Shown in pieces: positions 559 to 54,510 of a DNA stretch of 64,000 nucleotides (its first letter is position 1; every line of letters starts with the position of its first letter). Under the pieces are notes generated by a model. It was given only the letters and a program-made list of their open reading frames with translations. It had not been told where the DNA came from and did not search any database. Location: the UHGV virus genome UHGV-0084588; one strand, given 5' to 3'. The position numbers were made by a program, and so were the translations under genes. Source of the stretch: a virus.

Positions 559-2121
559 TCAAAAGAGTTCGTCACCCATGCCGCCGGTAAATACGTTAAT
601 CGACGAGGCTGTTACAGTTTCTTCTTTATCACAATCCCATGGCAAAATGCCAACATCACGGAAAGGTATTACAGTATAATGATAAGCTTCTTTGGTATCA
701 ATAATGGTACGGTGTTTACCGCGTTGTACTTCTAAATAGCTGTGACCGTTGACGACACGTTTGTTAAAATACATCTCACCGTCAGCTTCGTTGTCTAAGC
801 TAGAGCAGTTGTCGTAAAGACCACGACCAGGTAAGTTCTTACAGAAACTCGCTGGGTCGAGTGCTTTTAATTTTTTGCCTTCTGGTGAGATTTGGTGTGG
901 TGCTAACAGGAAACCACGATTACGTACCACTTGGATGTTTCGTGCGATACGATAAATTTCTTTAATGTCGCTACCCGCAATGCCGTTACCGTGCCCTGCT
1001 TTGCTGATAGTACCGAAATAGTCTCCGCGTATTCCAGCTACATGATAACCTCGACGTTTTAAATCTAAAATCAAATCATTTAAATAGTGAATTTTAAAAT
1101 CGGAGTTTGTGTGTTTTTGGAAAATATACTCCCAACCGTTCGCCCGCATTTTACTACAGAGGTAGTCTGACATTTGTGCATTATGTGACGCTTTTTCTTC
1201 GTCAGTTGCGGTTTCTGGCGCAACCATTACCGGGGCTGTACCTTCAAAGTGTCCGTAAAGTGCCTGATACGCGTAAGCCAAGTTAACATCCAATTCGTTT
1301 TCTAAACTTAAATCTAGAATAACCGGTTGTAGATCACCTTTAACATTCGCCATCACCTTTTCTGGGGTGTTGAAAACAGGAATGCTAATAGAGAGCAATA
1401 AACTGAATAATGACTTACAGTTAAAGGGGAGAGCAGGCATCAGCCAGAGTTCTTCGGTGATCCCTTTGTTACAACCGAGCATCTGGTTAATTGCTTTCCA
1501 ACCTGTACGCAACCCGTTCCCTGCCGCTTTCTTACTGATAGAGTCGAAAACGTGTACGAAAGGTGCTTTATTGTCAGTAATCAATTCCCCTACCAGAGAA
1601 GGAATCTTATTATGAGAGCGTTCACTGAACGTGGATAAGGTATCCTTAAGGTCGTTGAGCGCCGTTTGTAAATCAACGCGCGTTTCGGTACCGTTCAGTG
1701 CGCCTAACGTACGACCCAATTTTTGTTTCAGTTGTACGCCTTGAATAGCTTGACGTAACTGAAAGTAGTATTGTGCTACTTGGCGATTAAGATGCTCGAT
1801 GCGTGCTTCTGGTTCTTCTGGAATATCATCTTCCAGGAATTTGGTAATCGTATCGTATAGAGGACGTATTTGCGTAGTGGCCAGTTTCAAACGTTTCATG
1901 ACGTTTGTGTGGTCGTAAGGCATACCGCCGTCTATGATGGATGTGATGATATCCTTGATTTCGACGAGGGCGGCACGTTCGTCACCTTCCTCTGCGTAAT
2001 CAGGAAGCTTAGCCTCTAACAGCACTTTTCTTATGATGTCGTGGTCCTTTTCAGGATCGGTCAGAAGACTTTCAGCGTATAATGTGGCTAAGGCGGTTAT
2101 CAACATCATTTTGTTATTCAT
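559..2121 (-). CDS. hypothetical protein (520 aa)
   Basis: Long uninterrupted ORF; minus-strand hairpin with T-run lies just downstream (434-454). No motif I can assign. Confidence 0.6.
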   Translation of the reverse strand: MNNKMMLITALATLYAESLLTDPEKDHDIIRKVLLEAKLPDYAEEGDERAALVEIKDIITSIIDGGMPYDHTNVMKRLKLATTQIRPLYDTITKFLEDDIPEEPEARIEHLNRQVAQYYFQLRQAIQGVQLKQKLGRTLGALNGTETRVDLQTALNDLKDTLSTFSERSHNKIPSLVGELITDNKAPFVHVFDSISKKAAGNGLRTGWKAINQMLGCNKGITEELWLMPALPFNCKSLFSLLLSISIPVFNTPEKVMANVKGDLQPVILDLSLENELDVNLAYAYQALYGHFEGTAPVMVAPETATDEEKASHNAQMSDYLCSKMRANGWEYIFQKHTNSDFKIHYLNDLILDLKRRGYHVAGIRGDYFGTISKAGHGNGIAGSDIKEIYRIARNIQVVRNRGFLLAPHQISPEGKKLKALDPASFCKNLPGRGLYDNCSSLDNEADGEMYFNKRVVNGHSYLEVQRGKHRTIIDTKEAYHYTVIPFRDVGILPWDCDKEETVTASSINVFTGGMGDELF

Positions 2122-2134
2122 GGAGCATCCTTAA

Positions 2135-2659
2135 ATGCAAATTCGTTTTAGTCCACCGTGGGAAGTTCAACCTAACATAGATAAAGGCGCTGCCGTTAAA
2201 AGTATAGAATTGCTCCAGGCAGGGTTCTTTAACTGGTTATATGACTGTCCGAATGGTTTCAGTTCTATCATCTTACCTGAAGTAAGTCGTTCTGCTATTT
2301 ATAAAGCACTGATGGCTCCGCCTGTGCTTCCAGGTAAATATTATGATCAGGTGTTACGTCTGGTCGAATCAGGCGAAAAGGTTTCCCTTGACGATTTATA
2401 TGGGGAAACAATTCCTTGTCGCGTACGTTGGGTGTTTACTCAACGTGGTGATACGATTGTGGCGTCATTTGCAGAAGCAAAGTCCGGTTCGGGTTTTTCT
2501 TCGGGTGAAGACCACGCTGCGAAAAAGATGTTCTGCGCAGAACTTTTTAAATATATGCGTACCAAGACTCGCGTCGTGGATGACTGCTTCAGTACCTCAA
2601 CGCAGTTTGCCGCTAACGAAGTGCTGACGCAATTATACGCATGTCATTTATCTCATTAA
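2135..2659 (+). CDS. hypothetical protein (174 aa)
   Basis: ORF whose ATG is 13 nt from the divergent start of 559-2121; sits immediately upstream of the capsid gene. Confidence 0.55.
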   Translation: MQIRFSPPWEVQPNIDKGAAVKSIELLQAGFFNWLYDCPNGFSSIILPEVSRSAIYKALMAPPVLPGKYYDQVLRLVESGEKVSLDDLYGETIPCRVRWVFTQRGDTIVASFAEAKSGSGFSSGEDHAAKKMFCAELFKYMRTKTRVVDDCFSTSTQFAANEVLTQLYACHLSH

Positions 2660-2671
2660 GGTATTAAACAA

Positions 2672-4966
2672 ATGAAAGATACCCGAATCTCTAATCTGGA
2701 GAAACTCGTACAAGCTGGTAACTCGCTGGTACAAAGCGTCATTAGTAACAACAGTGCTGGCGAAATGTGGAACACCATCGTTGCTGGTGAATCTGTACGT
2801 AGCAACACGAAAGTTTTTGGTACCCTGCGTGACGACGCTGCACAGCACTACGCAAACGCGTTTGCTGGCGGTAAGAAAATGTCCCACGCTGCGGAAGTTG
2901 CTTCTGCAATGATTCTGGGTGCTGCTGGTCACGGTATGGACCTGCAAGAAAAAGTAGCGCAAGAATACGCTAAACCAGAATTCCATAGCCGTTTTAACCT
3001 GGACGTTGCGATTCCTGGTTCCCAAGCTGGTAACGGCGACTGGGGCAAAGAGCGTATGGTTGTCGCTCAGGAATACTACACCAACAAAGACTACGACAAA
3101 AACCTGGGTCTGACCTGGACGCTGAACGTACGTGCTCTGGAAACTCAGTCTCGTTTCGCTGAGACTCTGTTCCCGACCATTACCGTTGACACCAACGATG
3201 TTGGTATTACCGTACGTACCAAAGTGACCACCGTTTCTCGCGGTGTAATGAACGCACTGCTGAGCAAAGACGTTGTTGAAGATCATCGTCGTCCGCTGCA
3301 CAACGCACTGACCGACCACACCGTTCTCCAGGACGAAGCGATCAACATCGTTCCTTACGTAATGGAAACCGGTGAAAACGCTGAATACTTCGTAAGCGAA
3401 GATCTGGTGCCGAACGAATCTGTTCGCCTGGGCCGTGTACCTCCGTACCCGACTAACTACCTGAGCTTTGCTAAAGACACTCTGAACCTGTTCCAGCTGT
3501 CTGCGCATCCGGGTATCGTTCAGGAAGGTTACGACGAAACTGATGAAATCGCACCGGGTTGTGCTCTGGGCAGCCTGCTGATTTCTGTACGTAAACCGAC
3601 CGAAGAAGCGAAAGCAGGTAAGTTCATCAAACTGCACGTTCGTGACATGCAGTTCGCAACCTTCCAGCGTCCTGCTGAAGGTGATGGCCGTGAGCTGGTA
3701 CTGCAATTCCGTCGTACTGCGTTCTCTCTGAACGCGAAAACTACCGACTGGACTGGTGCGGCTATTCCGGCACTGCAAGCGCTGGGTCAGAACTCTTACA
3801 CCCTGCGTTATGTGATCACCATCAACATGTCTCTGTTCACTACCGGTCAGTTCGGTGGTAAAGTTGACATCGCTGGTCACAAACTGGAAATCGAAGGTCT
3901 GTACGACGCTACCGGTAACAAAGTTGATACCAAATCTGGTACCGGCAAAGTTATCCTGGACGGTCTGAAACTTGAACTGATGGGCTGGCGCTTCGATGGT
4001 ACTCGTACCAACGAAAACCGTCGTACCCAGGGTCTGCTGCTTGACCCAATCTGGGAACAAGAAAACTACAAACTGCAATACGGTTCTCCGATTCTGACCA
4101 AGTCTCCGGTTGGCGTTGAATACGACGACACCGAACGTCTGGACGACCTGATTTCCGCAGTTAACATCCGTAACGAACAGCTGGCTATCACTCAGACGCT
4201 GTCTTACACCGAAGCGGTACGTAACGCTGCTGCAAGCATGATCACTCCGTGGGACAAACCGGCCATTCGTGGTCTGGGCCGTCACTGGGTTGCTCCGTGG
4301 TTCAAAGAGTCTGACTACAACGTTGATGAAGTTGTACAGTCCCTGGATACCAAAGATGCACTGATCAACGCTCGTCAGGGCCTGGTACAGCGTATCGGTA
4401 ATCAGGTAACTCAGGCTATCCAGGAATCTCGCTTCATTCCTGCGCTGCGTCTGTACACCGCCGATCCGGACATTCTGCCGAAAGTTGTTATTGCAACTGA
4501 CGAACCGACTGCATCTATGCTGCTGCTGGTACAGGGCGACCAACGTCTGCTGGGCGATCGCTACGAATACGAAGTGATCACCACCAACGATGACCGCTGG
4601 CGTATCTACAACGCAGCTGACGGTTCCTGGACTCGTCGTCTGCAATGGTTCCTGAAAGTTCCGACTGCGGACGATGGTTCCTACAACGTGCTGAACTGGG
4701 GTAACCACTTCTGGTCTCCGATCATGGTTACTAACATCAACATTCAGCGTAACGGCTCTACCTCTAAAGAGCTGGCCGTACAGCCGCGCAACGCACACAT
4801 CTGCCACTGCCCGATCACTGGTCTGATCTGGGTTAAAGGCATCACCAAACTGGTTGAAGAAAAACTGGCTTACAATGTTTCTGTTGAACAGAACGGTCAG
4901 AAGCAAACCGACGGTGGTGTAGCAGGTAACGTTGCTGGCGATGGCAAAGCTGCTGCTGGTAAGTAA
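2672..4966 (+). CDS. putative major capsid protein (764 aa, jumbo-phage size class)
   Basis: Strongest codon bias in the window (ctg, cgt, ggt, gaa, aaa dominate), SD taagg upstream, strong terminator directly downstream. Size matches phiKZ-type capsid proteins; homology was not verified. Confidence 0.5.
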   Translation: MKDTRISNLEKLVQAGNSLVQSVISNNSAGEMWNTIVAGESVRSNTKVFGTLRDDAAQHYANAFAGGKKMSHAAEVASAMILGAAGHGMDLQEKVAQEYAKPEFHSRFNLDVAIPGSQAGNGDWGKERMVVAQEYYTNKDYDKNLGLTWTLNVRALETQSRFAETLFPTITVDTNDVGITVRTKVTTVSRGVMNALLSKDVVEDHRRPLHNALTDHTVLQDEAINIVPYVMETGENAEYFVSEDLVPNESVRLGRVPPYPTNYLSFAKDTLNLFQLSAHPGIVQEGYDETDEIAPGCALGSLLISVRKPTEEAKAGKFIKLHVRDMQFATFQRPAEGDGRELVLQFRRTAFSLNAKTTDWTGAAIPALQALGQNSYTLRYVITINMSLFTTGQFGGKVDIAGHKLEIEGLYDATGNKVDTKSGTGKVILDGLKLELMGWRFDGTRTNENRRTQGLLLDPIWEQENYKLQYGSPILTKSPVGVEYDDTERLDDLISAVNIRNEQLAITQTLSYTEAVRNAAASMITPWDKPAIRGLGRHWVAPWFKESDYNVDEVVQSLDTKDALINARQGLVQRIGNQVTQAIQESRFIPALRLYTADPDILPKVVIATDEPTASMLLLVQGDQRLLGDRYEYEVITTNDDRWRIYNAADGSWTRRLQWFLKVPTADDGSYNVLNWGNHFWSPIMVTNINIQRNGSTSKELAVQPRNAHICHCPITGLIWVKGITKLVEEKLAYNVSVEQNGQKQTDGGVAGNVAGDGKAAAGK

Positions 4967-6170: not shown

Positions 6171-7946
6171 GTGTTTAAAGATGCAATCAAAAAGCTTAAA
6201 GAGAGTGGTAAAATAGTACCCTTTAACCGTGCGATTGCGGAAGGAGTCGGTTATACGCAAGCCAAAGATGGTATTCATGATCGCGTTCATCGAATCTTGA
6301 AACGTGAGCTAGATTACCATCCTGTAGAGAACCCTCGTGTTCCTGAAGGCTTGGCCGTGTTGGGTGTTCGTTTAATGTCGCCGTTCGAAACTTTTATCTA
6401 TAAGTTGTCTCGCTCAGAGAGCAGCAGAATGGATAAGCGTCGCGGGGTGATGTCTATCGCGAATACCGATGCGTATATGGTCATGTCGTCGTTCCGTATT
6501 CCTGGAGACTCAAGACCAATCTCAAGACCGATTAACTTGCCATTCATTCGTCGTGGTGGGTTGATGAACTATTACGGGACAACGTACCACGTTGCACCTG
6601 TTATTCATCAGCCGGGTATCTGTCGTGAGCATGGCGGGGTGTTTGTTAATTTTGACTTTAAACGTAAAGCGTCATTAAAATTCTGTAAGCATCCAGTACG
6701 TATTTTAGTGAATGGGAAGAAAGAAGAGTTGTTCTTGCCCGGAACAAACAATTTGTTTAAAGCCAAAAACGCCACACATCCTGACACGGACGAAAAACCG
6801 TTAATGTACTGGTTATTCGGACGTTATGGATTTAAGGAAGCCATCAAACGTTATACTGGCGTGGATGTGGAGATATATCCTGCATTCAAAGTACCTGAAA
6901 TCGATCTCGATAAAAAAGTAGTAATCGGTTCAGGTGAGCCTAAACATAATCGGTCGATTATGTACGTAGTGACGGTTCCTGCAGAGGCTTTACCGAATCT
7001 CGATAAAGCAGGATGGGATCAAAACGAGCACTTATTACTCGTGGCGATTTCTGCATTCTTTAAAGCAGCGCACTATTATTGCGGAAAGCAAGCGATTAAA
7101 AACGGCAACGTTGTTCCTTTACCGCCGTTGTTTACCGCTATTAACGAACTTGCAATGGAGGACGATGTTCTAAACCTGAATTCCTCCGCAATTTGGCGGG
7201 AGATTTTGGGGAGAAGTATTGTTGGACTTAAACCGTCTGATATTGAACTGGCACACAGCATGACGAAACACTATACGGAGTGTGAACGCTACGTTAACTC
7301 AACATTCCGTGGCGAGTTAATGATGTCAGATCCCGATATCCCAGACGATATGGATATGTTTGATTTCTTCTGGTACGCGACGAAGTTGATGGTGAGAACG
7401 CGCCTCACGAAACAAGGCGATATTCCGTCAATGTATGGAAAACGTCTGACCGTAACAGATTACCTGTTATTAGGTGAGCGTGGCTTTACACCTACCATTG
7501 CTGCGATTCGTTTTCACTTGGGACAAACGGAGAATAGAACACCGGAGTCTTGTGCGAACATGATACGCAGTGCGTTGAATAAAGACATTGTAACCAGCCT
7601 GGTATTGCGCAACATTACCGGTAACGGCGGTGTAAGTTATTTCAACGCTTCTACAGAGTCTATGGTGCTGGGGGTTTCAACCCATGCTATCAGCCAGACA
7701 GAAACAGAATCAAAACGTAGCAGCAAGGGCGGTAAGACGGTTAACCTTAACGACCGGACAAAACATGCCTCTGCATCTCATCTGGAATGTGGTAACGTGT
7801 ATTACATTCCGAAATCATCACCGTTCAAATCGGGCATTCTCAATCCGTATATGAAGACGAATACCCAACTGGTGATGGTGCGTAATCCAAAACTCAACGA
7901 CTTGATCCAAGCAACTGAAGAAGACATTGCGAAGATTGGCCGTTAA
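6171..7946 (+). CDS. hypothetical protein (591 aa)
   Basis: Long ORF, 10 nt after the previous stop, same strand. Confidence 0.65.
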   Translation: MFKDAIKKLKESGKIVPFNRAIAEGVGYTQAKDGIHDRVHRILKRELDYHPVENPRVPEGLAVLGVRLMSPFETFIYKLSRSESSRMDKRRGVMSIANTDAYMVMSSFRIPGDSRPISRPINLPFIRRGGLMNYYGTTYHVAPVIHQPGICREHGGVFVNFDFKRKASLKFCKHPVRILVNGKKEELFLPGTNNLFKAKNATHPDTDEKPLMYWLFGRYGFKEAIKRYTGVDVEIYPAFKVPEIDLDKKVVIGSGEPKHNRSIMYVVTVPAEALPNLDKAGWDQNEHLLLVAISAFFKAAHYYCGKQAIKNGNVVPLPPLFTAINELAMEDDVLNLNSSAIWREILGRSIVGLKPSDIELAHSMTKHYTECERYVNSTFRGELMMSDPDIPDDMDMFDFFWYATKLMVRTRLTKQGDIPSMYGKRLTVTDYLLLGERGFTPTIAAIRFHLGQTENRTPESCANMIRSALNKDIVTSLVLRNITGNGGVSYFNASTESMVLGVSTHAISQTETESKRSSKGGKTVNLNDRTKHASASHLECGNVYYIPKSSPFKSGILNPYMKTNTQLVMVRNPKLNDLIQATEEDIAKIGR

Positions 7947-9931: not shown

Positions 9932-9942
9932 TCGCCCCCACA

Positions 9943-9975
9943 GGAGAGCTTCGGCTCTCCTCCTTTATTTTTATT
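9943..9975 (+). terminator. rho-independent terminator
   Basis: GGAGAGC-ttcg-GCTCTCC followed by tcctttatttttatt. Confidence 0.65.
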
Positions 9976-10019: not shown

Positions 10020-10319
10020 ATGATTAAATATGTTGTTATTAATGTAAACTACGAACGTAGCCCACGTTTTCGCTTCGAATTACCTGAAACCGAAGCAACC
10101 ATGGAGTTTAATCGCTATTTATTAGAACATTCAAACACCAAAATTAATCACGGTAGATACTGGCTTATCTACTATAATGCCCGTAATGAATTACTGAAAG
10201 CCGTCAAGAAATCAGGTCAGTCGGAGCTGTTAGCGAAACTGATGGCGTACGATAACGATCCCTTAGCAATAGGAGTTATGTTAGACCTTGTTATTAAGAA
10301 AGATGAAATAGCGTGGTGA
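10020..10319 (+). CDS. hypothetical protein (99 aa)
   Basis: ORF with SD gaggaa upstream; ends at a bidirectional terminator. Confidence 0.5.
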   Translation: MIKYVVINVNYERSPRFRFELPETEATMEFNRYLLEHSNTKINHGRYWLIYYNARNELLKAVKKSGQSELLAKLMAYDNDPLAIGVMLDLVIKKDEIAW

Positions 10320-10332
10320 AAAAAGAAAAGCT

Positions 10333-10357
10333 ACTCCGACCCCAGAAGGGTCGGAGT
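10333..10357. terminator. bidirectional terminator between convergent genes
   Basis: ACTCCGACCC-caga-aGGGTCGGAGT flanked by an A-run upstream and ttatttttttttt downstream; lies between 10020-10319 (+) and 10384-13101 (-). Confidence 0.65.
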
Positions 10358-10383
10358 AAGCTCGAATTATTTTTTTTTGCTAT

Positions 10384-13101
10384 TTAGAGGGTTTCATCGG
10401 CGTTGTCGTCTGTACCGGTATCCGTCTCGTCTGTGCCTTCAGCAGAAACGTCTTCTTCCGTTGTCGTATCGGTTTCCGTCGTTTCATCATCAGACATGTC
10501 CAAGTCTTCATCACCGCCCATATCGTCACCTCCTAAGTCCTCATCGCCCCCTAAGCCGCCGTCGTCTTCAGACCCGCCACTGTAGTCACTACCGCCACCG
10601 AAGTTATTGGCGTCCTCAGGATTCAAATCAGCCGCTTTTGCCAAGGTTTCAACTTTACCTGTTGCACGCTTTGCTAACTGAATCAACGTTTTAGATGCTG
10701 ATGCGATTTCATCAGAAATCATCTTGACGTTTTCGCCACGTTTATCTTCGTCGTAGATCAAATCAAACAGATCGGTTTCGATGCCCTGATTGCGTAGCCA
10801 GTTACGCGTATAGAACGATTTAATCATCGTCTTGAGATCATCAGGCTGCATTTCGATACCTTCATTCTGAAGCATATTTGAAATGTCGTCGGTAACAACC
10901 AGATCCGCCAGTTTCTCAATGAACTCATAGCGTTTATCGAACAGATCCGCTTGTGAAGAAGAAGCTGATGTGTCTGGTGGTGGTAAGGTGACTTTCATGC
11001 CATTGATGAACTTCGCCAGATACTCTGACGTTTGCTTGGTCAAGTCTTCACTTGTTACGTTAGGATTTTGATTGCGAATATACTCAACGATAATACGAAT
11101 CAATTCTGCTTGTAACTTAGGAGAGGCTTGCAAACTGTTTGTCACGTAGCGTGTTAACGGCGTAGACAGGATTTCTTGTTTCTTCACGATTTGCTGAGTA
11201 ACCAGCAGTGACTTGGAATAAATCTGCGAAGCAAATTCCAGGTTTTCTGGGGTCAAAACAAGATCCGGGTCTACACACGCGATGTGGCAAGTACGGCGGA
11301 GTAAGTTTTCATCGATTTGCTGATCGGGCACTTTATACTCAGGCGTTGTGTCCGAAACGGACACTTTATGACTGGCGTAGTATTCGTTACCCGTCACGTT
11401 AAATGCAATCCCGGCATTAGCCCCCATTGACCAGGCATCGTTGATATCGCCCCACATCGGTAAACGACGATTATAGGAGTTGAGGATATCCGATTTAACT
11501 TGGTCAACTGTTTTCTGACCGTTCATATCGTCCGGCGATAACTCAATGTCATATTGCATGTGACGCGCTGAGTTCAACACTGAAGAGTTCATTGTTGCGA
11601 ACAACAGCGCCATCCTGACCGTAGAGATGATAAAGGAACGTTCGGTGATAGACACCCCGATACCATCTTCGTTAAAGTCCGTTGCAAAGTAGCATAAGTT
11701 ATTAACCGGGATATAGACAACCTGTGTGTGACGTTTTGCGAGATGACGTGCCAGTAGAATACGACCGAAGGTTTCGGTAATTTTCATGCTGATTTCGGCA
11801 CCACCCAACGCCTGACTTAAAGCGCGGGTAAATTCGTTCTCAGCAATCTCGCTGCAACGTGCGCTTAAACGGTTGGCGATTTCAGGCGTTATACGAGAGG
11901 TATTACCCAAGCCTAAATTAGAGCGGTTGATAATACTGTCTGTCATGCCATCGTTATTAAGGTAGTTCATAAAGTTCGCGTCCCCGTAGAGTGAGGAACG
12001 TGAGTTGATGAAGTTACCCATATCGTCAATAATGGTCAGAAACCCAATAGGGTTACGAACGTCGTCACCAATAACCAACGGGGCGGTAGACTCAGCAGGG
12101 AGTAAGCATTCGAAATAGTCGATCTGGTTGTTTTCATCCATCGAAATAATCGGGATGTTACCATAAAGCTGAGTTTTTGGTGTACTTTTGTACGCTTCGT
12201 TCAGATCACCTAAGTTAATGAAACCTTTTTCAGCCGCATCACGCTGACGATCGTTAAACTGTTGATTAACTTCGTACGGCGCAGCACCTGTCGGTGTGGC
12301 TGGCTTTTCATATGCGGCTTGCTCTAATTGGCCGTAGAGACCAGTACGTGCGTTCTCATGCGCGATTCGACGATAAGCATGGGGCAGTAACGTGATACGT
12401 GGGTTGTCGGTAATCGAGATGTCCATTTCGAACTTATCTGAGAACATCTTATCATGGTTACTGAAATTGATTTTCAGTGATTGTGGTCCTTTAACAGGTC
12501 CACGGACACGGCTCAGAATAGATTCCACACCCACCCGTTGTCCGTCTTCTTGCGCGTTAATTGGGCCGAGAATACCGAGTTGTTCTTCGAAATAGGCGGC
12601 TTGAGAACGACGCATGGATTCGGTAGCGACTTTGGTGTCTAAACCGAATAGCTGGTCAAATCCATTGTCCGAGATTATCATCACTGGACTTGCGCCTTTT
12701 GTTTTTAACGCGTCGTAAATCCACTGATATAATTTCTTAGGTAATTGACGTACGTTATCATGGTAATCGCGCGTTGGCGTCAGTAAGTCATTACGTAAGT
12801 CAATTGGAATGTCTGCGATGTTGTCGTAAATCAACGTGGTGTTGATTAAGTCTTTTGTCGACAGCAAGCTCGAAGTTGCAATGGTAACAATCGTTTCGAG
12901 TTCAGGTAACGCATCAAAGATACGTTCCGCGCTTTTGATAGTACGAATACGCGAACTTACAATTCCTGCAAGTTCTTGACGTGTTGGCGTAGAACCACCC
13001 TCGCTACGCGTACCGCGTTGTTGCTGGGGTGCTGGGCCCGTAGTTTTACGAAGAATTGCAGCTACGGCGGGGTCGCCCGTTAATTTACTAATATCGTCCA
13101 T
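10384..13101 (-). CDS. large hypothetical protein with acidic Gly/Asp/Glu/Thr-rich C-terminal tail (905 aa), possibly virion-associated
   Basis: Long minus-strand ORF; last 90 aa are poly-acidic low complexity. A portal-like role is a guess from size only. Confidence 0.6.
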   Translation of the reverse strand: MDDISKLTGDPAVAAILRKTTGPAPQQQRGTRSEGGSTPTRQELAGIVSSRIRTIKSAERIFDALPELETIVTIATSSLLSTKDLINTTLIYDNIADIPIDLRNDLLTPTRDYHDNVRQLPKKLYQWIYDALKTKGASPVMIISDNGFDQLFGLDTKVATESMRRSQAAYFEEQLGILGPINAQEDGQRVGVESILSRVRGPVKGPQSLKINFSNHDKMFSDKFEMDISITDNPRITLLPHAYRRIAHENARTGLYGQLEQAAYEKPATPTGAAPYEVNQQFNDRQRDAAEKGFINLGDLNEAYKSTPKTQLYGNIPIISMDENNQIDYFECLLPAESTAPLVIGDDVRNPIGFLTIIDDMGNFINSRSSLYGDANFMNYLNNDGMTDSIINRSNLGLGNTSRITPEIANRLSARCSEIAENEFTRALSQALGGAEISMKITETFGRILLARHLAKRHTQVVYIPVNNLCYFATDFNEDGIGVSITERSFIISTVRMALLFATMNSSVLNSARHMQYDIELSPDDMNGQKTVDQVKSDILNSYNRRLPMWGDINDAWSMGANAGIAFNVTGNEYYASHKVSVSDTTPEYKVPDQQIDENLLRRTCHIACVDPDLVLTPENLEFASQIYSKSLLVTQQIVKKQEILSTPLTRYVTNSLQASPKLQAELIRIIVEYIRNQNPNVTSEDLTKQTSEYLAKFINGMKVTLPPPDTSASSSQADLFDKRYEFIEKLADLVVTDDISNMLQNEGIEMQPDDLKTMIKSFYTRNWLRNQGIETDLFDLIYDEDKRGENVKMISDEIASASKTLIQLAKRATGKVETLAKAADLNPEDANNFGGGSDYSGGSEDDGGLGGDEDLGGDDMGGDEDLDMSDDETTETDTTTEEDVSAEGTDETDTGTDDNADETL

Positions 13102-13112
13102 TGGGGTCTCCG

Positions 13113-15296
13113 ATGCAGAGATTTAACATATTTCGTGATCAGAACATCGCGTTGGCGAAATCACTGATTATTAAATCAGAATCAATCGCGCAACAGATGA
13201 ATCTGGCAATAACCGAGAACGGCGGTTTCGTTTCCGATAACCGTAGTACGTGGCGATACTACCTGCATTTAGCAGGACAACGTCACGAAATGGATAAACC
13301 CATTTACATAACGTCGCTCGACACGCAAGAGCAGATAGAATTAACGACAGCCAACCTGTCCCGTCATAAAAAGACCTCTAACGTTTTTCGTTCGAATGCT
13401 GAGTATATTGAGGCATTGATCGCAACTTATCCTGAATACGCGATTTATATTCGCGGCGTCTTTACGCCAATCGATTTAAACTACGCGTTACGTGTAGACG
13501 ACTGTTCTATTTTGTACTACGACAGTTCGTTGGTAGAATCACAAGAGACGTCCTTGATTAGCCGTCTGGAGGCGAGAATTCGTGCAGCCCACGTCCGTTA
13601 CATGGCTGAGGGTTGGAAGGTCCACAACGACGCGTTTGTGTTAGCTTTCTATTGCATGTTGTTTCCGCAGCTACCAGGCATAATTGGCTATATTCGTTCT
13701 TCTTTACAGCATACGACAGAAACACACTCTTTCTTCGTTACCGAATTTTTAGCTTCGCATCAGGAACTGCACGAGTTTATGCCGTACCTGACTCAGAAAC
13801 AAAAATTCATTCTTTATCGAAATATTCGATACTGGGAACGTAACTCAGGGAAAGAAGAGATCTTCGATTGGCAAATCGATGCGCTACTGACAGGTTGGGG
13901 AATGCCTGCGGTCGGGTATAATGTTGCGCAGCAGATTCACGAACCGAAAGATAACGATGATAATTCCTTAACACCGTTGCCTATCGGTTATCAGCAATCT
14001 TTAAACTACACAGAGAAAGACTCTGGACGCGATTTGGATATTGTTACTACTACGGACATAATCCAAAAAGAGGTGGGGTTAGCGTATAATAACCCGGCGT
14101 ACGAACCGGAGTATCAAGAAGACCTAGACACACGGCTGAGTCTGACACAGTATCCCAACTTAACGACGAAGCTCGTAGAAGTAACCGCCGTTGACCCAGA
14201 AGCTATTGAGCGTTTTGAATACACACATAACCTCTTTAATGAATGGGTACATTTGGTAGCGAAGGGAAAATACAGCATCTACCACGAGATTCTTAACCCG
14301 ACAAACGGCGACACGTTAAAACTGAGTTCGAAAGAGCTGTTGGCGCTGTTTTTGTACGCGACGTATAAAGGTTACTCCGATGTTGCACTTGAAGAAATCC
14401 CCGTATTTAACGTTTTTGATGTCTTGATTAAACGTTGGGTTTCGTTCGATGAAATGGAACAACATCTTATCCCGAGTTGGGAACACCGTTTCGACGCACT
14501 GATTAACTATTACACCGACACCCACACCGAAGTGGTCGGAACGATTCTCAGTGCCGATGAACTTTACGACACGGTTAATGAAATTATCTTACAGAAACGC
14601 CGTCGTTGGCGTTATAGTCAAAACCGTCGTAAGATTCCCGACCGTGCTGCGGGTTTAATGTTGTTCGATTACCACTATCGCGATTACCGATGCGATTTAA
14701 AGTTAAAGTATCGTAACTACGACGAGTTCTTTAAGACCTTCGGTTTAGACTACACACTGGTCTCCGCAGAAACGTGGCAAGATATCGCAGTCGATGCATT
14801 GAACACCGCAACAAACCTTGAAACGCGTGCAACTATTTCGCAATCTGAAATACAGCGTGCGATGGTCCGATTAATGACCAAGCTTTCGTCGTATACCGTA
14901 CATTTTGCTGCGCGGATGGGGTCAGATTCTTACGACGTTATGGACCCGCTTTGTCCGATCTTAGGGGATATCCCTATGAGTGGGGAGGGTACAGTTACCA
15001 TCATTGAACCTCTCTTAGGCGTACAGTCAGTTACGCGACACCAATACATGACGACGGACAAAGTGCTCCCCGCAGCGCCGGTGATTAAAGAGCTGTCCAT
15101 GCCGCAACACATCAAACTACGGATGAACATTTACATGGGTATCCGTGTGAGAGTGAATCAGCAAGTCGTGGTGGATATTAATGAACCGACCACCGGGGTT
15201 GTTAAGGTCAAGTCTTCACTTGACGACTGGGCGTTAAACGAACAGGTGAAAATTAACGATCTCGAAGGGTTTACGTTAGACCAGCTACCTAAGTGA
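13113..15296 (+). CDS. hypothetical protein (about 727 aa)
   Basis: Long ORF; I prefer the ATG at 13113 over the TTG at 13101 given by the track. No Walker A motif seen, so I do not call it a terminase. Confidence 0.6.
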   Translation: MQRFNIFRDQNIALAKSLIIKSESIAQQMNLAITENGGFVSDNRSTWRYYLHLAGQRHEMDKPIYITSLDTQEQIELTTANLSRHKKTSNVFRSNAEYIEALIATYPEYAIYIRGVFTPIDLNYALRVDDCSILYYDSSLVESQETSLISRLEARIRAAHVRYMAEGWKVHNDAFVLAFYCMLFPQLPGIIGYIRSSLQHTTETHSFFVTEFLASHQELHEFMPYLTQKQKFILYRNIRYWERNSGKEEIFDWQIDALLTGWGMPAVGYNVAQQIHEPKDNDDNSLTPLPIGYQQSLNYTEKDSGRDLDIVTTTDIIQKEVGLAYNNPAYEPEYQEDLDTRLSLTQYPNLTTKLVEVTAVDPEAIERFEYTHNLFNEWVHLVAKGKYSIYHEILNPTNGDTLKLSSKELLALFLYATYKGYSDVALEEIPVFNVFDVLIKRWVSFDEMEQHLIPSWEHRFDALINYYTDTHTEVVGTILSADELYDTVNEIILQKRRRWRYSQNRRKIPDRAAGLMLFDYHYRDYRCDLKLKYRNYDEFFKTFGLDYTLVSAETWQDIAVDALNTATNLETRATISQSEIQRAMVRLMTKLSSYTVHFAARMGSDSYDVMDPLCPILGDIPMSGEGTVTIIEPLLGVQSVTRHQYMTTDKVLPAAPVIKELSMPQHIKLRMNIYMGIRVRVNQQVVVDINEPTTGVVKVKSSLDDWALNEQVKINDLEGFTLDQLPK

Positions 15297-17937: not shown

Positions 17938-17977
17938 AACCTCTACCTTCGGGTAGAGGTTACTTCTTTTTATTTTT
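17938..17977 (+). terminator. rho-independent terminator
   Basis: AACCTCTACC-ttcg-GGTAGAGGTT followed by acttctttttattttt. Confidence 0.7.
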
Positions 17978-25304: not shown

Positions 25305-25350
25305 CTCAGATATATATTACTTAAGTGAGAGTTACAATTAACTCTTTACA
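25305..25350 (+). promoter_or_regulatory. conserved promoter-like element with downstream inverted repeat
   Basis: CTCAGATATATATTACttaaGTGAGAGTT...AACTCT, 45-75 nt upstream of the HTH gene. Confidence 0.45.
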
Positions 25351-36008: not shown

Positions 36009-36212
36009 GCTTGACGCTTTTACTGGTAATGGAGGCCAAAGTAAACTTTTATCAAGACTTAGTAAACCCAGATCATGAGAACGCGGAATTGGACATCACT
36101 TTCACGTTAGAAGTTGATGGATTAAAACCAGTATAATAATCCGCTTATAAAAATGTTGGGGAGGTGCTTTACCTCCCCAGATCTTTTAGCTCCAGATAGA
36201 GAATTAAATATC

Positions 36213-39200
36213 ATGGCTAAAGCGGTAAAGAAAATACGTTTACACGATTTGCGTCCATACACCGGGGATATCGGTGAAGGCGTTTTACTTTTTTCGAAAG
36301 ACGAAAAAGATTATAAGTTACCCGTCCGCGAAATCGTTGCGGATATTGACACCGTCAGAAACGCGGTTGCTGATGCACAAACAGCTGCAGCCAAATCGCA
36401 GCAGTCTGCAACAGAAGCTACGCAAGCAAAAAATTTAGCGGAAACCGCGAAGCAACAAACTGACACGTTAGCTTCCACAGTCAGTGAGCAAGCGGGAACC
36501 GTTGCCACTAAAACTGCTGAAGTTAACAAAAAACACGCTGAAGTTTTAGCAGCGAAAACTGCCGTAGATACTGTTTCACAATCAGTAAATGAGAAGGCTC
36601 AAGCTGTCGCCACATCCGAACAATCTGTGACGGCTACGGCGGCTGATGTAACTAAGAAAGCAGAAACGGTTACGCAACAGGCCGGACAAGTTCAACAGAC
36701 GGCTACCAGCGTTGAAAATACCGCAGCTTCAGTCGAGGCCAGTAAAGGTGCAGTGGAGAAAATCGCTGCACAGGTCGCGAAAGATAAAGAAAGCTCAGAA
36801 GGGGCAGCTACGCGTTCGGAGTCAGCTGCCCTACGTGCGGAGAAAATCGCTGCCCAAGGATTAGTTGACGCTACTACAACCGGTAAAGGTATTGTTAAAC
36901 TTAACGATACCCTGACAAGCGATTCCGTGACTGAGGCTGCTACACCGTCCACGGTTAAACAGCTGAACGACGATTTACAGTTAAAAGCCAATAAACATTC
37001 GCCGAATTTTACGGGTAACCCGACATCCCCAAAACCGCCGAAGGACTCGAATGACACGAGTATCTCCACAACGTCCTGGGTGCGTGACGCGATTGCGGAA
37101 TTGGTTGGTTCTTCACCCGAGACGCTAAATACCTTAGCGGAATTAGCTGAGGCGTTAGGTAATGACCCTAACTTCGCAACAACGATCACTGAGGAACTTG
37201 CGCAGAAACAACCTCTCAGCCCGTTACTCACCGCTATTGCCGCAGTCACCACAGCGGCAAACAAACTCATGTATTTCACCGGCAGTAATAAAGTCGGATT
37301 AACAGATTTTACAGAAACGGCCAGATCCTTGTTAGCGAAAGGGTCAACTGCGGATATCATTAACTTCCTGGGTTTGAAACCCACCGTTGATAAAGCAAAC
37401 GGCGCATTACAGAAAAACTCTAACGGTGCTGATATCCCAAATAAAGAAACTTTTGCTCGCAACATCGGCCTATCTCCTGATACCTATCTGCGTTTCCGTG
37501 GCGAAATGCCTGTAGATGCTGATATTAACACATTTGCTCCAGATGCTAATTACACAGGAACATGGTCCAAGTCGACATCAACCAATGCGTCGATGGCAAA
37601 ACACTTCCCAGAAGACGGTGCAGTCGGTTATCTGGAAGTGTATAAAGCGGGCAACTACAGTGGAGCGCAACGTTTTACCTGCCGTAATGGTAACGTGTAC
37701 AACCGTATGTTGTCAGGTGCGTGGAACGGAACTAATGGCCCGTGGTCACCGTGGAGAATGGTAACTACCGGTGTACGTCCGTTATCTACATCGATCGATC
37801 TGAACTCCTTAGGCGGCGCTGAGCACATGGGTAACTGGCGTAACTCGTCCAGTTCGTTAGCGGTGTTCGACAGACATTATCCTGAAGAGGGCGGTAATGC
37901 GCAAGGCGTATTAGAAGTCATGGAAGGCGGTCTTTATGGACGGTTGCAACGATACACCACACGACATGGTACGATGTATGTCCGTGGTTTGACTGCGACT
38001 TGGGATTCTTCTAATCCGCAGTGGGAAGATTGGATTCAGGTTGGGTATCAGGTAGACGGTGCCTACTATAAGGGTAGCTTTAACGACTTAACTAAACCGG
38101 GCCGCTTTAGTGTTACCGGTGAGGCTACAGACAGTCCGTTAACAGACTCTGCTGGCGCAACCTTGCTAGGTGTTTGCGAAGTTACCTTACGCTTAGACGG
38201 TTCAGGCGTTGAACAAAATTATACCACATACGGTACAGGCGCAACTTCGAAAGGTCGCAAGTTCCAACGAATTCGTACAGGAAACGCCTGGAGCGAATGG
38301 CGAGAGATTTTCACATCCTATTCACTCCCGTTGACTTTAGGGATCGGTGGGGTTGCTGCTAAGGTCGATCCGTTAGACTGGCAAACATTCGACTTCGTTC
38401 CTGGCCAGATGATAAGTACACCGTTGAATACCATGAAAAATATTCCTGCGGGAATGGATTGGGGTGTTATCGACGGTAACTTGGTCACTATTCTTGTAGG
38501 GGCGTCGGAGGACACCGGTACTGGCCGGAGTATGTTGGTCTGGCGTGGTACAGTGTCTACTGCTAACTATCGCTTCTTTGCTGTTCGCGTCGCTGGTGAA
38601 AAGGGTAAACGTACTATTACTAGCCGCCAGATGCCCGTATTGAATGCAGCGCATACGTGGGCAGAAAAACAGACCTTTGCAAAAGGGTTATCGGGCGAAT
38701 TGACAGGTAATGCGTCAACGGCAACAAAACTGAAAACAGCCCGTTTAATCGGCGGTGTAAGTTTCGACGGTAGCGGCGACATTAGCCTCCCTGGTGTGAA
38801 CCAACAGGGTAATCAAAACACCTCTGGGAACGCGGGAACCGCAACCAAATTACAAACGGCTCGAAACATCAACGGTGTGAAATTTGATGGGTCTAGAGAC
38901 ATCAATATCAACACGTTGGTAGGACGTGGACGTGTTACTGCACTGTCTGGTTCAAACAAAGGTACACCCGGTATTCAGATGTACGAAGTTTACAATAACG
39001 GTTATCCAACCGCTTATGGTAACTTACTGCATTTGGGTGGCGCTACTGCGCTAGGTGAAGGCGAGCTGTTAATCGGATGGCCGGGGACGAGCGGTGCGCA
39101 CGCGCCTGTTTATATTCGTAGTCGACGTGATACGGCTGATGCACCGTGGTCAGATTGGGCACAAGTTTACACTGCCCGTGACAGCATTCCTGGCGTAAAT

Positions 39201-40655
39201 GCCACCGGTAATCAAGATACTACCGGCAACGCCGCTACCGCGACGAAACTGAAAACCGCTCGCAGGATCGGAGGCGTTACCTTTGACGGTACAGGTGATA
39301 TCAATTTACCGGGCGTTAACCAGCAAGGCAACCAGAATACGACAGGTAATGCAGCGACCGCTACTAAGTTACAAACCGCACGTAAGATCGGCGGTGTGCT
39401 TTTCGATGGGACAAAAGACGTTAATCTTCCTGGCGTAAACCAAACCGGTAACCAATCGACTACGGGGAATGCGGCGACAGCGACTAAGCTCCAGACTGCG
39501 CGAAATATAGGTGGTGTAGCTTTTGATGGTACTAAAGACATCAGTTTACCTGGAGTAAACCAAACAGGTAATCAGGCGACTACCGGAAACGCAGCCACGG
39601 CAACAAAGTTGCAAACCGCAAGAACCATTAACGGTATCGCATTTGACGGCACTAGAAATATATCGTTAGGACCTGCCGATATAGGTTGTCCGGCATCGCC
39701 TAGTGGTTGGTTAGAAACTGGCAAAGATGGCGGCGCAATAACTACAGCACAGCTAGTGACGTTATTGAAAAATAACGGCGCATTTACCACAAGATCGTGG
39801 GTTGCTCGCTGTGCATGGGCTTATGCCGCTAGTGCGTCCATACCACACAGCGAGACGGGTTGTGGTGTTATTCCGTTAGCTGGGGCCGTTATAGAAGTGA
39901 TTAGTAACGGTAATAGCACAAACAACTACACGATCCGTATAACGACTGCCACAACGGCGAGCGTCGGTGGCGCACTCACTAATGCGGAGTTTATCTACGT
40001 ATTTAACGGCGATACATACTCACCAGGCTGGCGTCGTGCTTACAATACGAGAAACAAGCCAACTGCTGCAGAAGTGGGTGCACTACCTTCGGGGGGCGGT
40101 ACTATAGGCGGCGATTTAACCGTTAACGGTAAATTGGCCACTAAATACCCTGATTTTCGAATCGCTTACGGTACCTACGGTTTTATTTTACGTAACGACG
40201 GTGCCAATACCTATTTCTTAGTAACCGACGCCGGACAAGCCGCAACGGGTTCCTGGAACGGATTACGCCCGTTGTCTTTTAATAATTCTAACGGCCAAGT
40301 AAACTTTGGACATAACGTTACTGGCAACGGTAACGGTTCGTTTAACGACGTACAGATTCGTTCTGACCGTCGTAACAAACGTAATCTGGTGAAGCTGGAT
40401 AAAGCTTTGGATCGGTTAGAGTTACTAACCGGTTATTTGTACGAAATTCAGCATCCGGATGACGGCTGGCAGACTTCTGTAGGTCTAATTGCTCAGGACG
40501 CATTAGAAGCGTTACCTGAACTTGTGTCTGAGGATGATGATGCCATTTCAGGCGAAAAACGTTTACGTCTAAACTACAATGGCGTTATTGCGCTGTTAGT
40601 AGAGGGTATGAAAGCGTTGCGTCAAGAGGTTAACGAAATTAAAGGAAGATCCTAA
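36213..40655 (+). CDS. tail fibre protein with Ala-rich coiled coil, 40-aa tandem repeats and C-terminal intramolecular chaperone (S74-like) domain
   Basis: 1480-aa ORF; repeats GNAATATKLQTAR.IGGV.FDGT.DI.LPGVNQ.GNQ.TT; C-terminal SDRRNKRN...GLIAQD...YNGVIALLVEGMKALRQE resembles the self-cleaving chaperone domain of tail fibres and tailspikes. Start moved from 36153 to 36213 by paralogy with 42678. Confidence 0.85.
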   Translation: MAKAVKKIRLHDLRPYTGDIGEGVLLFSKDEKDYKLPVREIVADIDTVRNAVADAQTAAAKSQQSATEATQAKNLAETAKQQTDTLASTVSEQAGTVATKTAEVNKKHAEVLAAKTAVDTVSQSVNEKAQAVATSEQSVTATAADVTKKAETVTQQAGQVQQTATSVENTAASVEASKGAVEKIAAQVAKDKESSEGAATRSESAALRAEKIAAQGLVDATTTGKGIVKLNDTLTSDSVTEAATPSTVKQLNDDLQLKANKHSPNFTGNPTSPKPPKDSNDTSISTTSWVRDAIAELVGSSPETLNTLAELAEALGNDPNFATTITEELAQKQPLSPLLTAIAAVTTAANKLMYFTGSNKVGLTDFTETARSLLAKGSTADIINFLGLKPTVDKANGALQKNSNGADIPNKETFARNIGLSPDTYLRFRGEMPVDADINTFAPDANYTGTWSKSTSTNASMAKHFPEDGAVGYLEVYKAGNYSGAQRFTCRNGNVYNRMLSGAWNGTNGPWSPWRMVTTGVRPLSTSIDLNSLGGAEHMGNWRNSSSSLAVFDRHYPEEGGNAQGVLEVMEGGLYGRLQRYTTRHGTMYVRGLTATWDSSNPQWEDWIQVGYQVDGAYYKGSFNDLTKPGRFSVTGEATDSPLTDSAGATLLGVCEVTLRLDGSGVEQNYTTYGTGATSKGRKFQRIRTGNAWSEWREIFTSYSLPLTLGIGGVAAKVDPLDWQTFDFVPGQMISTPLNTMKNIPAGMDWGVIDGNLVTILVGASEDTGTGRSMLVWRGTVSTANYRFFAVRVAGEKGKRTITSRQMPVLNAAHTWAEKQTFAKGLSGELTGNASTATKLKTARLIGGVSFDGSGDISLPGVNQQGNQNTSGNAGTATKLQTARNINGVKFDGSRDININTLVGRGRVTALSGSNKGTPGIQMYEVYNNGYPTAYGNLLHLGGATALGEGELLIGWPGTSGAHAPVYIRSRRDTADAPWSDWAQVYTARDSIPGVNATGNQDTTGNAATATKLKTARRIGGVTFDGTGDINLPGVNQQGNQNTTGNAATATKLQTARKIGGVLFDGTKDVNLPGVNQTGNQSTTGNAATATKLQTARNIGGVAFDGTKDISLPGVNQTGNQATTGNAATATKLQTARTINGIAFDGTRNISLGPADIGCPASPSGWLETGKDGGAITTAQLVTLLKNNGAFTTRSWVARCAWAYAASASIPHSETGCGVIPLAGAVIEVISNGNSTNNYTIRITTATTASVGGALTNAEFIYVFNGDTYSPGWRRAYNTRNKPTAAEVGALPSGGGTIGGDLTVNGKLATKYPDFRIAYGTYGFILRNDGANTYFLVTDAGQAATGSWNGLRPLSFNNSNGQVNFGHNVTGNGNGSFNDVQIRSDRRNKRNLVKLDKALDRLELLTGYLYEIQHPDDGWQTSVGLIAQDALEALPELVSEDDDAISGEKRLRLNYNGVIALLVEGMKALRQEVNEIKGRS
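38706..38912 (+). repeat. two tandem copies of a 120-bp (40-aa) fibre repeat inside the tail fibre gene
   Basis: Encodes GNASTATKLKTARLIGGVSFDGSGDISLPGVNQQGNQNTS followed by a diverged copy. Confidence 0.7.
39225..39680 (+). repeat. four tandem copies of the 120-bp (40-aa) fibre repeat inside the tail fibre gene
   Basis: Copies begin at 39225, 39345, 39465 and 39585; each encodes GNAATATKLQTAR.IGGV.FDGT.DI.LPGVNQ.GNQ.TT with synonymous codon drift. Confidence 0.8.
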
Positions 40656-43352: not shown

Positions 43353-43398
43353 CTCAGATATATATTACCTAGGGGAGAGTGAAATTTACATTCACTCC
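43353..43398 (+). promoter_or_regulatory. conserved promoter-like element with downstream inverted repeat
   Basis: CTCAGATATATATTACCTAGGgGAGAGTGAAatttacaTTCACTCC upstream of 43426. Confidence 0.45.
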
Positions 43399-47260: not shown

Positions 47261-47307
47261 TTCAGATATATATTACCTAGGTGAGAGTTCAGTTACTCTC
47301 ACTTAAC
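47261..47307 (+). promoter_or_regulatory. conserved promoter-like element with perfect palindrome
   Basis: TTCAGATATATATTACCTAGGTGAGAGTtcagttACTCTCACTTAACG upstream of 47332. Confidence 0.45.
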
Positions 47308-54379: not shown

Positions 54380-54434
54380 CTTTTTTATAAAAAGTTAAAA
54401 AAAATATTTTTACAGACAACCCTTACTGCCGACT

Positions 54435-54463
54435 GTCATAACAATTAACACCACTTCTATAAT
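54435..54463 (+). promoter_or_regulatory. sigma70-like promoter candidate
   Basis: Perfect -10 TATAAT (54458-54463) with a weak -35 gtcata at 17-bp spacing, about 45 nt upstream of 54511. Confidence 0.3.
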
Positions 54464-54510
54464 CCGAACAATACTATGCAATCCACCCTGCCAACCACGA
54501 GGTAAATACG

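Follow-up and report, generated by a model that had tools for sequence, protein, structure and literature searches.

Predicted promoters inside neighbouring coding sequences at two tightly spaced divergent gene pairs of an SPN3US-like jumbo phage

How can two genes that are read in opposite directions both be transcribed when there is almost no DNA between their start codons? The question is raised by a stretch of 64,000 nucleotides from the virus genome UHGV-0084588, referred to here as the window, in which two pairs of divergent genes start back to back. At one of them (junction B) the starts are at 13101 (minus strand) and 13113 (plus strand), 11 nt apart, and at the other (junction A) they are at 2121 (minus) and 2135 (plus), 13 nt apart. 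This layout, which had been pointed out in a preliminary description, is confirmed by the sequence, the table of open reading frames (ORFs) and a gene call on the parent scaffold. We consider it probable that each of the divergent genes is transcribed from a T-rich TATG tetramer lying antisense in the coding sequence of its neighbour, and five start sites are predicted on this basis.

The parent scaffold is a metagenome scaffold of 220,786 bp, and the independent gene call made there gives the same 905-aa and 727-aa genes at junction B, 11 nt apart. The source of the window is an SPN3US-like jumbo phage belonging to the phiKZ-like group, metagenomic in origin and with its own multisubunit RNA polymerases. 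Nucleotide identity is about 74-78% with SPN3US, the Erwinia phages Asesino and Stratton and others, and gene order is shared with them; a PhiKZ_MCP capsid domain is present in the window. Alignments with relatives covered 16-29 kb per relative and comprise, with the window included, 8 genomes at junction A and 10 at junction B, from five genera.

Junction B separates a portal gene from a virion protein gene. The portal gene (10384..13101, minus strand, 905 aa) is homologous to phiKZ gp129 and SPN3US gp81, with a match to phrog_3004 over residues 2-902 and a BLASTP E value of 7e-36 against phiKZ gp129; its start codon reads as CAT at 13099-13101. SPN3US gp81 is a 100-kDa portal protein, from which an N-terminal propeptide is cleaved off (PMC5694885). 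The virion protein gene (13113..15296, plus strand, 727 aa) opens a long block of plus-strand genes. Its product is a homologue of phiKZ gp128: it matches phrog_3222 over residues 1-725, phiKZ gp128 is in the same PHROG, and tblastn found it in 290 phage records, 276 of them with at least 80% of the protein covered. Its identity to deposited relatives is at most 82%. The 11-nt spacer TGGGGTCTCCG (13102..13112) appears to consist of two opposed ribosome-binding sites (RBSs). For the portal gene the minus strand has GGAGA, 6 nt ahead of the ATG, and for the virion protein gene GGGG(T) precedes the plus-strand ATG at 13113.

Junction A lies between a DnaB-like replicative helicase gene (559..2121, minus strand, 520 aa) and a 174-aa gene (2135..2659, plus strand). 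The helicase is the counterpart of the phiKZ helicase (115975-117450), which is in the same PHROG, and it matches phrog_3213 over residues 1-520 and Pfam PF20307 with an E value of 1e-125. Its start codon is the CAT at 2119-2121, and the plus-strand ORF starts at the ATG at 2135-37. The 174-aa gene belongs to phrog_8266 and lies directly upstream of the major capsid gene (2672-4966). This position matches that of phiKZ gp119; BLASTP found no similarity between the 174-aa protein and gp119, which is in phrog_14501 and not phrog_8266. The 13-nt spacer GGAGCATCCTTAA (2122..2134) likewise holds what appear to be two opposed Shine-Dalgarno sequences, GGAG for the 174-aa gene and AAGGA (the complement of TCCTT) for the helicase, and the block TTCATGGAGCA (2117-2127) is invariant in 8 genomes. 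The helicase start is placed within a CATG palindrome, so that the plus-strand leader holds a 4-codon mini-ORF, ATG GAG CAT CCT TAA (2120-2137), whose stop codon is directly followed by the start codon of the 174-aa gene (TAAATG). The arrangement could allow termination and reinitiation, or it could be coincidental, produced by the overlap of two RBSs. The window has three divergent junctions, two of 11-13 nt and a third, at 54380-54510, of 131 nt. The intergenic DNA of the third contains one TATG per strand, in the correct orientation.

A simple answer to the question would be that the start codons are mis-assigned, and that the true starts lie further in and leave room for ordinary intergenic promoters. 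This was also the case that the preliminary description had set against its own claim. The starts came originally from mechanical ORF calls, and codons 5 and 6 of the helicase gene are further in-frame ATGs; use of either would, however, widen the gap by just 12-15 nt. The PHROG profile matches of all four proteins extend over practically their whole length. With homologues as distant as phiKZ, the tblastn alignments of the 727-aa protein start at its residues 1-6, and N-terminal conservation sets in at residue 1 in 8-10 genomes of five genera, where the sole indel is in frame. The codon-position pattern runs from codon 2: over the first 40 codons, invariance at positions 1, 2 and 3 is 0.47, 0.71 and 0.05 in the portal gene and 0.51, 0.69 and 0.08 in the gp128-like gene, and third positions in codons 2-40 of each gene are much less often invariant than the other two, which is the same pattern as deeper inside the genes. 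Conserved Shine-Dalgarno sequences stand at the proper distance, and proteomics of SPN3US found peptides from the N-terminal region that the portal protein loses by cleavage (PMC5694885). It is concluded that the four start codons are real, and inward reassignment is very improbable. The preliminary description had also allowed for an earlier start of the 727-aa gene. A TTG at 13101 was considered and rejected, since it is not conserved and is out of frame in relatives with a 15-nt spacer.

The close spacing is not peculiar to the window. In the deposited annotation of SPN3US the gaps are 11 nt (junction B) and 14 nt (junction A), and phiEaH2, Asesino, Stratton and SNUABM_29 also have 11 nt at junction B and, where covered, 14 nt at junction A. 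The gaps are 15 nt (B) and 13 nt (A) in Machinavirus, and 15 nt (B) and 11 nt (A) in Derbicusvirus. The window, SPN3US, phiEaH2, Asesino, Stratton and SNUABM_29 all have the same spacer, TGGGGTCTCCG, which also makes up the first 11 of the 15 nt in Machinavirus. In a wider set of relatives the portal and gp128 genes are adjacent and divergent in all 19 of the 19 inspected, with annotated gaps from 11 to 254 nt: 11 nt in RSL2, 26 nt in PS2, 32 nt in Special G, 35 nt in phiKZ, 46-74 nt in LucasX, Moabite, LPKP23 and pTD1, and 254 nt in PhiPA3. The gap between the helicase and the next gene is 11-14 nt across the SPN3US-like clade and 211 nt in phiKZ, where it holds the late promoter P119L. Both divergent pairs have thus lost essentially all of their intergenic DNA in the SPN3US-like clade.

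Precedents for promoters in such a genome come from phiKZ. Its late promoter is TATG, in which the G is +1 and all four bases are required (PMC4666361, PMC7598289). Beyond the tetramer, the phiKZ late promoters carry little sequence information. In phiKZ, TATG promoters are read by the non-virion RNA polymerase (nvRNAP), and a beta-like subunit of this enzyme class, homologous to phiKZ gp123, is encoded in the window (6171..7946, plus strand). It matches phrog_2943 ('polymerase') over residues 1-590 and gives a BLASTP E value of 1e-19 over 536 aa; it is the one subunit identified here. Promoters within coding sequences are documented in phiKZ by ONT-cappable-seq (bioRxiv 10.1101/2023.10.13.562163). 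The 'late promoter' P070, with its transcription start site (TSS) at 130258, has a transcription unit consisting of the portal gene PHIKZ129 alone. It is located 70 nt inside the coding sequence of PHIKZ128 (128154-130328), 107 nt upstream of the portal start codon, and its sequence ends AAATTTTATGA. In the same data P062 (TSS 117303) lies inside the helicase coding sequence and is directed toward PHIKZ119, while P063 (TSS 117616) is P119L. In the 52 kb that were compared with the annotation, about half of the phiKZ late TSSs are intragenic.

Host sigma-70 promoters, with −35 and −10 hexamers embedded in the neighbouring genes, would be another way of starting transcription within coding sequence. 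Consensus matches do exist upstream of both plus-strand genes, for example TATAAT at 2079-2084 and TTAACG-17-TATAAT at 12705-12733. Such matches are, however, at chance level (24, against 24.8 ± 6.1 expected) and the hexamers are not conserved in relatives, and on these grounds sigma-70 promoters at the junctions were rejected. The development of phiKZ is independent of the host RNA polymerase and resistant to rifampicin (PMC4666361), and the same may be true of this clade. Dependence on sigma-70 is therefore highly unlikely.

TATG tetramers inside the neighbouring genes are, in contrast, conserved. The window contains 62 TATGs that are antisense within a gene, of which five are invariant across genera, starting at 1611 (+), 2032 (+), 2176 (−), 12311 (+) and 13365 (−). 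At least four T at positions −6 to −1 are found in exactly five of the 62, and these are the same five sites. All five aim at the two junctions. Synonymous sites are otherwise saturated, with only 7-16% of amino-acid-invariant columns keeping one codon in the helicase, portal and gp128 genes.

At junction A, the candidate late promoter TTTCTTATGA (2027..2036, plus strand) would serve the 174-aa and capsid genes, with a predicted TSS at G2035 and a 100-nt leader. It is antisense in helicase codons 29-32 (xtC ATA AGA AAr), and none of its 10 nt varies among 8 genomes from 5 genera, not even at the synonymous sites of ATA and AGA, which are rare codons (10% of those for Ile and 9% of those for Arg). 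The run is among the longest invariant ones of the region. Five T at −6 to −1 precede just two of the TATGs in the window, this one (2032-2035) and the one at 13365-13368 (minus strand; 5/6). A distal candidate, GGAATCTTATTATGA (1601..1615, plus strand), is also inside the helicase gene and has a predicted TSS at G1614 with a 521-nt leader. Its 15-nt run does not vary among 8 genomes, ranks second in length among the invariant runs of region A, and falls on a local maximum of synonymous constraint (helicase codons 161-180). In the other direction, the candidate helicase promoter is the TATG at 2176..2179 (minus strand, context TTATCTATGTTAG), with a predicted TSS at 2176 and a 55-nt leader. 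It is antisense in codons 14-15 (aaC/gaC ATA) of the 174-aa gene, again with a rare ATA codon and a T-rich upstream flank, and is invariant in 8/8 genomes, being one of only two invariant minus-strand TATGs in 15.8 kb.

At junction B, the candidate promoter for the block headed by the gp128-like gene is TTCATATGC (12307..12315, plus strand), with a predicted TSS at G12314 and a 799-nt leader antisense to the 5′ region of the portal gene. Its TATG (12311) is invariant in 10/10 genomes, gCA/tCA TAT being kept although the flanking amino acids change, and has a T-rich flank. It is the sole plus-strand TATG less than 1 kb upstream of the gene in 5 of the 10 genomes (the window, Phobos, SNUABM_38, Asesino and Caitlin), and it falls in one of the 12 invariant runs of at least 7 nt across 4.9 kb. 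The candidate portal promoter GGTCTTTTTATGAC (13365..13368, minus strand) has a predicted TSS at 13365 and a 264-nt leader; it is antisense in gp128-like codons 85-86 (CAT AAr), is invariant in 10/10 genomes, and resembles the mapped phiKZ portal promoter P070. A TATG closer to the portal gene (13127..13130, minus strand, GAAATATGTTAAA) would give its mRNA a 26-nt leader. It is a weak candidate and was demoted from main portal promoter, being found only in the window and Erskinevirus, with an A-rich flank, and being absent from SPN3US, Machinavirus and Derbicusvirus.

The site at 12311 is part of a CATATG palindrome (12309-12314), which places a second TATG on the sense strand of the portal gene at about codon 263. 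This is near the predicted propeptide cleavage of SPN3US gp81 (AQE-254), and in phiKZ, too, a late TSS on the sense strand (P071) lies within the portal gene. The sense-strand TATG may be an internal promoter.

The geometry of the five sites is conserved across the clade, and the SPN3US counterparts of the four core sites are at 69467 (+), 69609 (−), 79913 (+) and 80979 (−) of NC_027402.1. General synonymous constraint at the 5′ ends of the genes is absent at junction B (third-position invariance 0.05 and 0.08) and rises modestly at junction A (0.18 compared with 0.07, and 0.38 compared with 0.22). Any embedded element must therefore be short. The suggestion in the preliminary description that the promoters lie inside the neighbouring coding sequence is thus supported, both by the precedent of P070 and P062 in phiKZ and by the conserved TATGs in the window and nine relatives.

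Over the window as a whole, the behaviour of TATG is that of a signal. Counting both strands there are 248 copies, compared with 449 ± 18 in dinucleotide shuffles. When synonymous codons were shuffled within each gene, sense TATG was the most depleted of the 256 tetramers (159, against 239 ± 10 expected; z −7.9) and antisense TATG the fifth (61, against 106; z −5.9). The depletion is present in all three codon phases, and that of AATG, CATG, GATG, CATT and CATC is not comparable. It is also seen in SPN3US, Phobos, Caitlin and Asesino, with observed/expected ratios of 0.51-0.65, and is weaker in phiKZ (0.80). TATG is selected against in this phage, and the motif behaves as a functional signal genome-wide, a property that supports late promoters of this type but does not define them. 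Strong depletion is seen for two other tetramers as well, GATC and CTAG, with observed/expected ratios of about 0.5, and this suggests that Dam or restriction sites are avoided.

The preliminary description had offered read-through from distant promoters as the alternative to embedded ones. On this explanation the junctions would have no promoters nearby, and long transcripts would run antisense across the neighbouring gene. The phiKZ transcription units are indeed long and interconnected (PMC10914365), and the candidate at 12314 in itself implies an 800-nt antisense leader. The DNA around the junctions argues against it. Rightward of the portal start, all genes over about 40 kb are on the plus strand, with no minus-strand gene upstream from which the portal gene could be reached. 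Between the gene at 10020-10319 and the portal stop codon there is a strong 13-bp GC-rich hairpin (10331..10359), with an A-run before it and a T-run after it, which acts as a terminator for portal transcripts and is probably also a barrier to plus-strand read-through toward 13113. A portal transcript would have to cross this hairpin (10359-10331) and then run 8 kb antisense to reach the helicase. Plus-strand transcripts would have to pass first a terminator at 9942..9961, found by a terminator scan, and then the hairpin, to reach 13113; the plus-strand T-run starts 10 nt past the stem, so termination at the hairpin may be leaky. The portal gene of phiKZ, moreover, has its own mapped promoter 107 nt upstream of the start codon. 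Read-through is on balance quite unlikely to be what expresses these genes.

A further alternative is that the promoters are embedded but do not use TATG, and belong to a middle or unclassified type. An example would be the conserved AT-rich GTTAATTTACTAATAT in the first codons of the portal gene. There is some reason to consider it: 32 of the 149 phiKZ TSSs have no recognisable motif (PMC10914365), the middle promoters of phiKZ bear AAATACT about 17-18 nt before the TSS, AATTTACT is found 17-18 nt before 13106/13107, and the window has no plus-strand TATG less than 799 nt upstream of 13113. Such a promoter would leave the gp128-like mRNA with a very short leader or none, whereas the conserved Shine-Dalgarno-like sequence argues for a leader; sequences of this kind fill both spacers, which argues against leaderless mRNA. 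In addition, the TACT is lost in Derbicusvirus (TATT/TCTT), and the block encodes a conserved S/N-K-L-T with common codons, TTA being the one used most often for Leu when the capsid gene is set aside. No excess synonymous constraint is seen over the first 40 codons of the junction B genes, as the values given above indicate. We therefore regard a promoter of this kind as unlikely.

Against transcription from the embedded TATGs themselves there are several points. In phiKZ TATG is necessary but not sufficient (PMC4666361), so that conservation of a TATG does not prove a promoter. No transcription unit is given for PHIKZ128 in the ONT data of phiKZ, and hence there is no precedent for a gp128 promoter. 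In phiKZ, PhiPA3, Moabite, RSL2 and five other distant relatives the TATG positions are not kept at the homologous sites. The sites at junction B are the weaker ones, with just 5-9 nt invariant; TATG conservation alone at junction B, 2 of 22 sites, is not significantly above the background of 3-4%, and the leaders implied there are long (264 and 799 nt). The helicase is expected to be an early or middle gene, while TATG is a late-class motif in phiKZ. T-richness could partly reflect conserved Lys and Glu codons on the sense strand. Finally, a literature search found no mapped transcript 5′ ends for this phage or for any SPN3US-like phage. These points are set against the gene starts, the conservation, the avoidance of TATG, the T-rich flanks and the phiKZ precedent, all of which are observed, and it is from these that we infer the firing of the five sites in this phage.

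If the embedded TATGs are used, the arrangement can be accounted for in a simple way. In phiKZ the late promoter of nvRNAP is a TATG that overlaps the start site, and an element so short can be fitted into a coding sequence. Transcription would then need no intergenic space, and the remaining 11-13 nt appear to be taken up by the two opposed Shine-Dalgarno sequences. Transcripts would start at 2035 (+), 2176 (−) and, distally, 1614 (+) at junction A, and at 12314 (+) and 13365 (−) at junction B. In consequence there would be head-to-head overlap between the divergent transcripts, 142 nt long at junction A and at most about 1 kb long at junction B.

This overlap invites a bolder interpretation, which we think doubtful. 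It would hold that throughout the clade the loss of intergenic DNA forces an obligatory head-to-head overlap that is used as a switch of timing or dosage, and that a T-rich TATG on rare codons is the first sequence definition of an nvRNAP promoter beyond TATG itself. The helicase and capsid-operon mRNAs would share 142 complementary nt, and the mRNAs of the portal gene and the gp128 block up to about 1 kb, covering the propeptide region of the portal. Transcriptional interference or antisense RNA pairing might then set replication against capsid genes, and the 12-copy portal against its neighbours.

Other promoter-like signals were found in the window. An early-promoter-like motif, AGATATATATTAC, has three exact copies, at 25308-25320, 43356-43368 and 47264-47276 (all plus strand), and nearly matches the early promoters of phiKZ, which contain GAGATCTATATTAC and in which an AT-rich consensus is placed about 10 nt before the TSS. 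The two phages therefore have a promoter vocabulary in common. At 25308 and 43356 the copies are intergenic and come just after a terminator-like hairpin and T-run, and to judge by sequence the three are probably early promoters of this phage, for the virion RNA polymerase. No match to the motif within 3 mismatches occurs near 2000-2200 or 12900-13400. The heptamer TTTTTAC is intergenic at 17973, 26474, 29914, 31990, 50481 and 54407 (plus strand), after a terminator-like hairpin or a T-rich stretch. These are 6 of its 17 copies in the window, of which intergenic DNA makes up about 6%. It could be part of a middle-class promoter (compare AAATACT in phiKZ), or the end of terminator T-runs. A search of Rfam found no known RNA family anywhere in the window.

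Some further features of the window may be recorded. The longest invariant run in the region by far is AAAAGATGTTCTGCGCAGAACTTTTTAAAT (2523-2552, plus strand), which lies within the 174-aa coding sequence, some 120 nt ahead of the capsid start codon (2672), with 30 nt invariant in 8 genomes of 5 genera. It consists of an A-run, a short GC hairpin and a T-run, a shape like that of a weak terminator or attenuator working in both directions, or of a palindrome bound by a protein; the RNA fold is just −9 kcal/mol (z −0.9). A 752-aa ORF (2648-4906, minus strand), antisense to the major capsid gene and codon-aligned with it, was rejected as a gene and is a by-product of extreme codon bias: TTA, CTA and TCA are absent from the capsid gene, in which CTG makes up 64 of the 68 Leu codons. 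A 1500-aa protein (36153-40655, plus strand) has repeated segments and many partial matches to tail-fibre PHROG families, and is probably a host-recognition fibre.

Much of this is not a surprise, given that the spacing is already present in deposited annotations and that promoters inside coding sequences are documented for phiKZ. It is largely known biology, here in an extreme and conserved form. What is new is a testable map of five predicted start sites, which in SPN3US consists of the four core sites and one that is specific to SPN3US, at 80671 (+) of NC_027402.1. The counter-selection of TATG, together with the T-rich flank (−6 to −1) on rare codons, bears on what specifies nvRNAP late promoters beyond TATG, and both could help to direct the mutagenesis and engineering of promoters in SPN3US-like phages.

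A close comparison is with SPN3US, phiEaH2, Asesino, Caitlin, Phobos and jumbo phages of Erwinia and Salmonella that are related to them, which have the same two junctions with spacers of 11-15 nt; the window differs in being a distinct, metagenomic genome. Junction A can also be compared with P119L of phiKZ, the model late promoter for nvRNAP biochemistry and cryo-EM. In both cases divergent helicase and small pre-capsid genes are involved, with a TATG promoter that feeds (in the window, would feed) the capsid operon, and the second TSS inside the phiKZ helicase gene, P062, parallels the window candidates at 2035 and 1614. P119L, however, sits in a 211-nt intergenic region, while the window has 13 nt and the candidate lies in helicase codons 29-32, and the small downstream gene of the window is not detectably homologous to gp119.

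For junction B the counterpart is P070, which belongs to a homologous divergent pair of portal and gp128 genes and is likewise a promoter antisense inside the coding sequence of the partner. The core is TATG with a T-rich flank in both (AAATTTTATGA in phiKZ, GTCTTTTTATGAC in the window). The phiKZ spacer is 35 nt and the leader 107 nt, compared with a spacer of 11 nt and a candidate leader of 264 nt in the window; the codons that carry the two sites are not homologous, and the phiKZ site is mapped whereas that of the window is predicted. Compact divergent units in other phages and in bacteria resemble these junctions in having intragenic promoters and mRNAs with complementary 5′ ends. The difference is that the polymerase here is a multisubunit enzyme of the phage, without a requirement for sigma-70-type −35 and −10 elements, and because of this an element of 4-10 nt can be encoded by codon choice alone.

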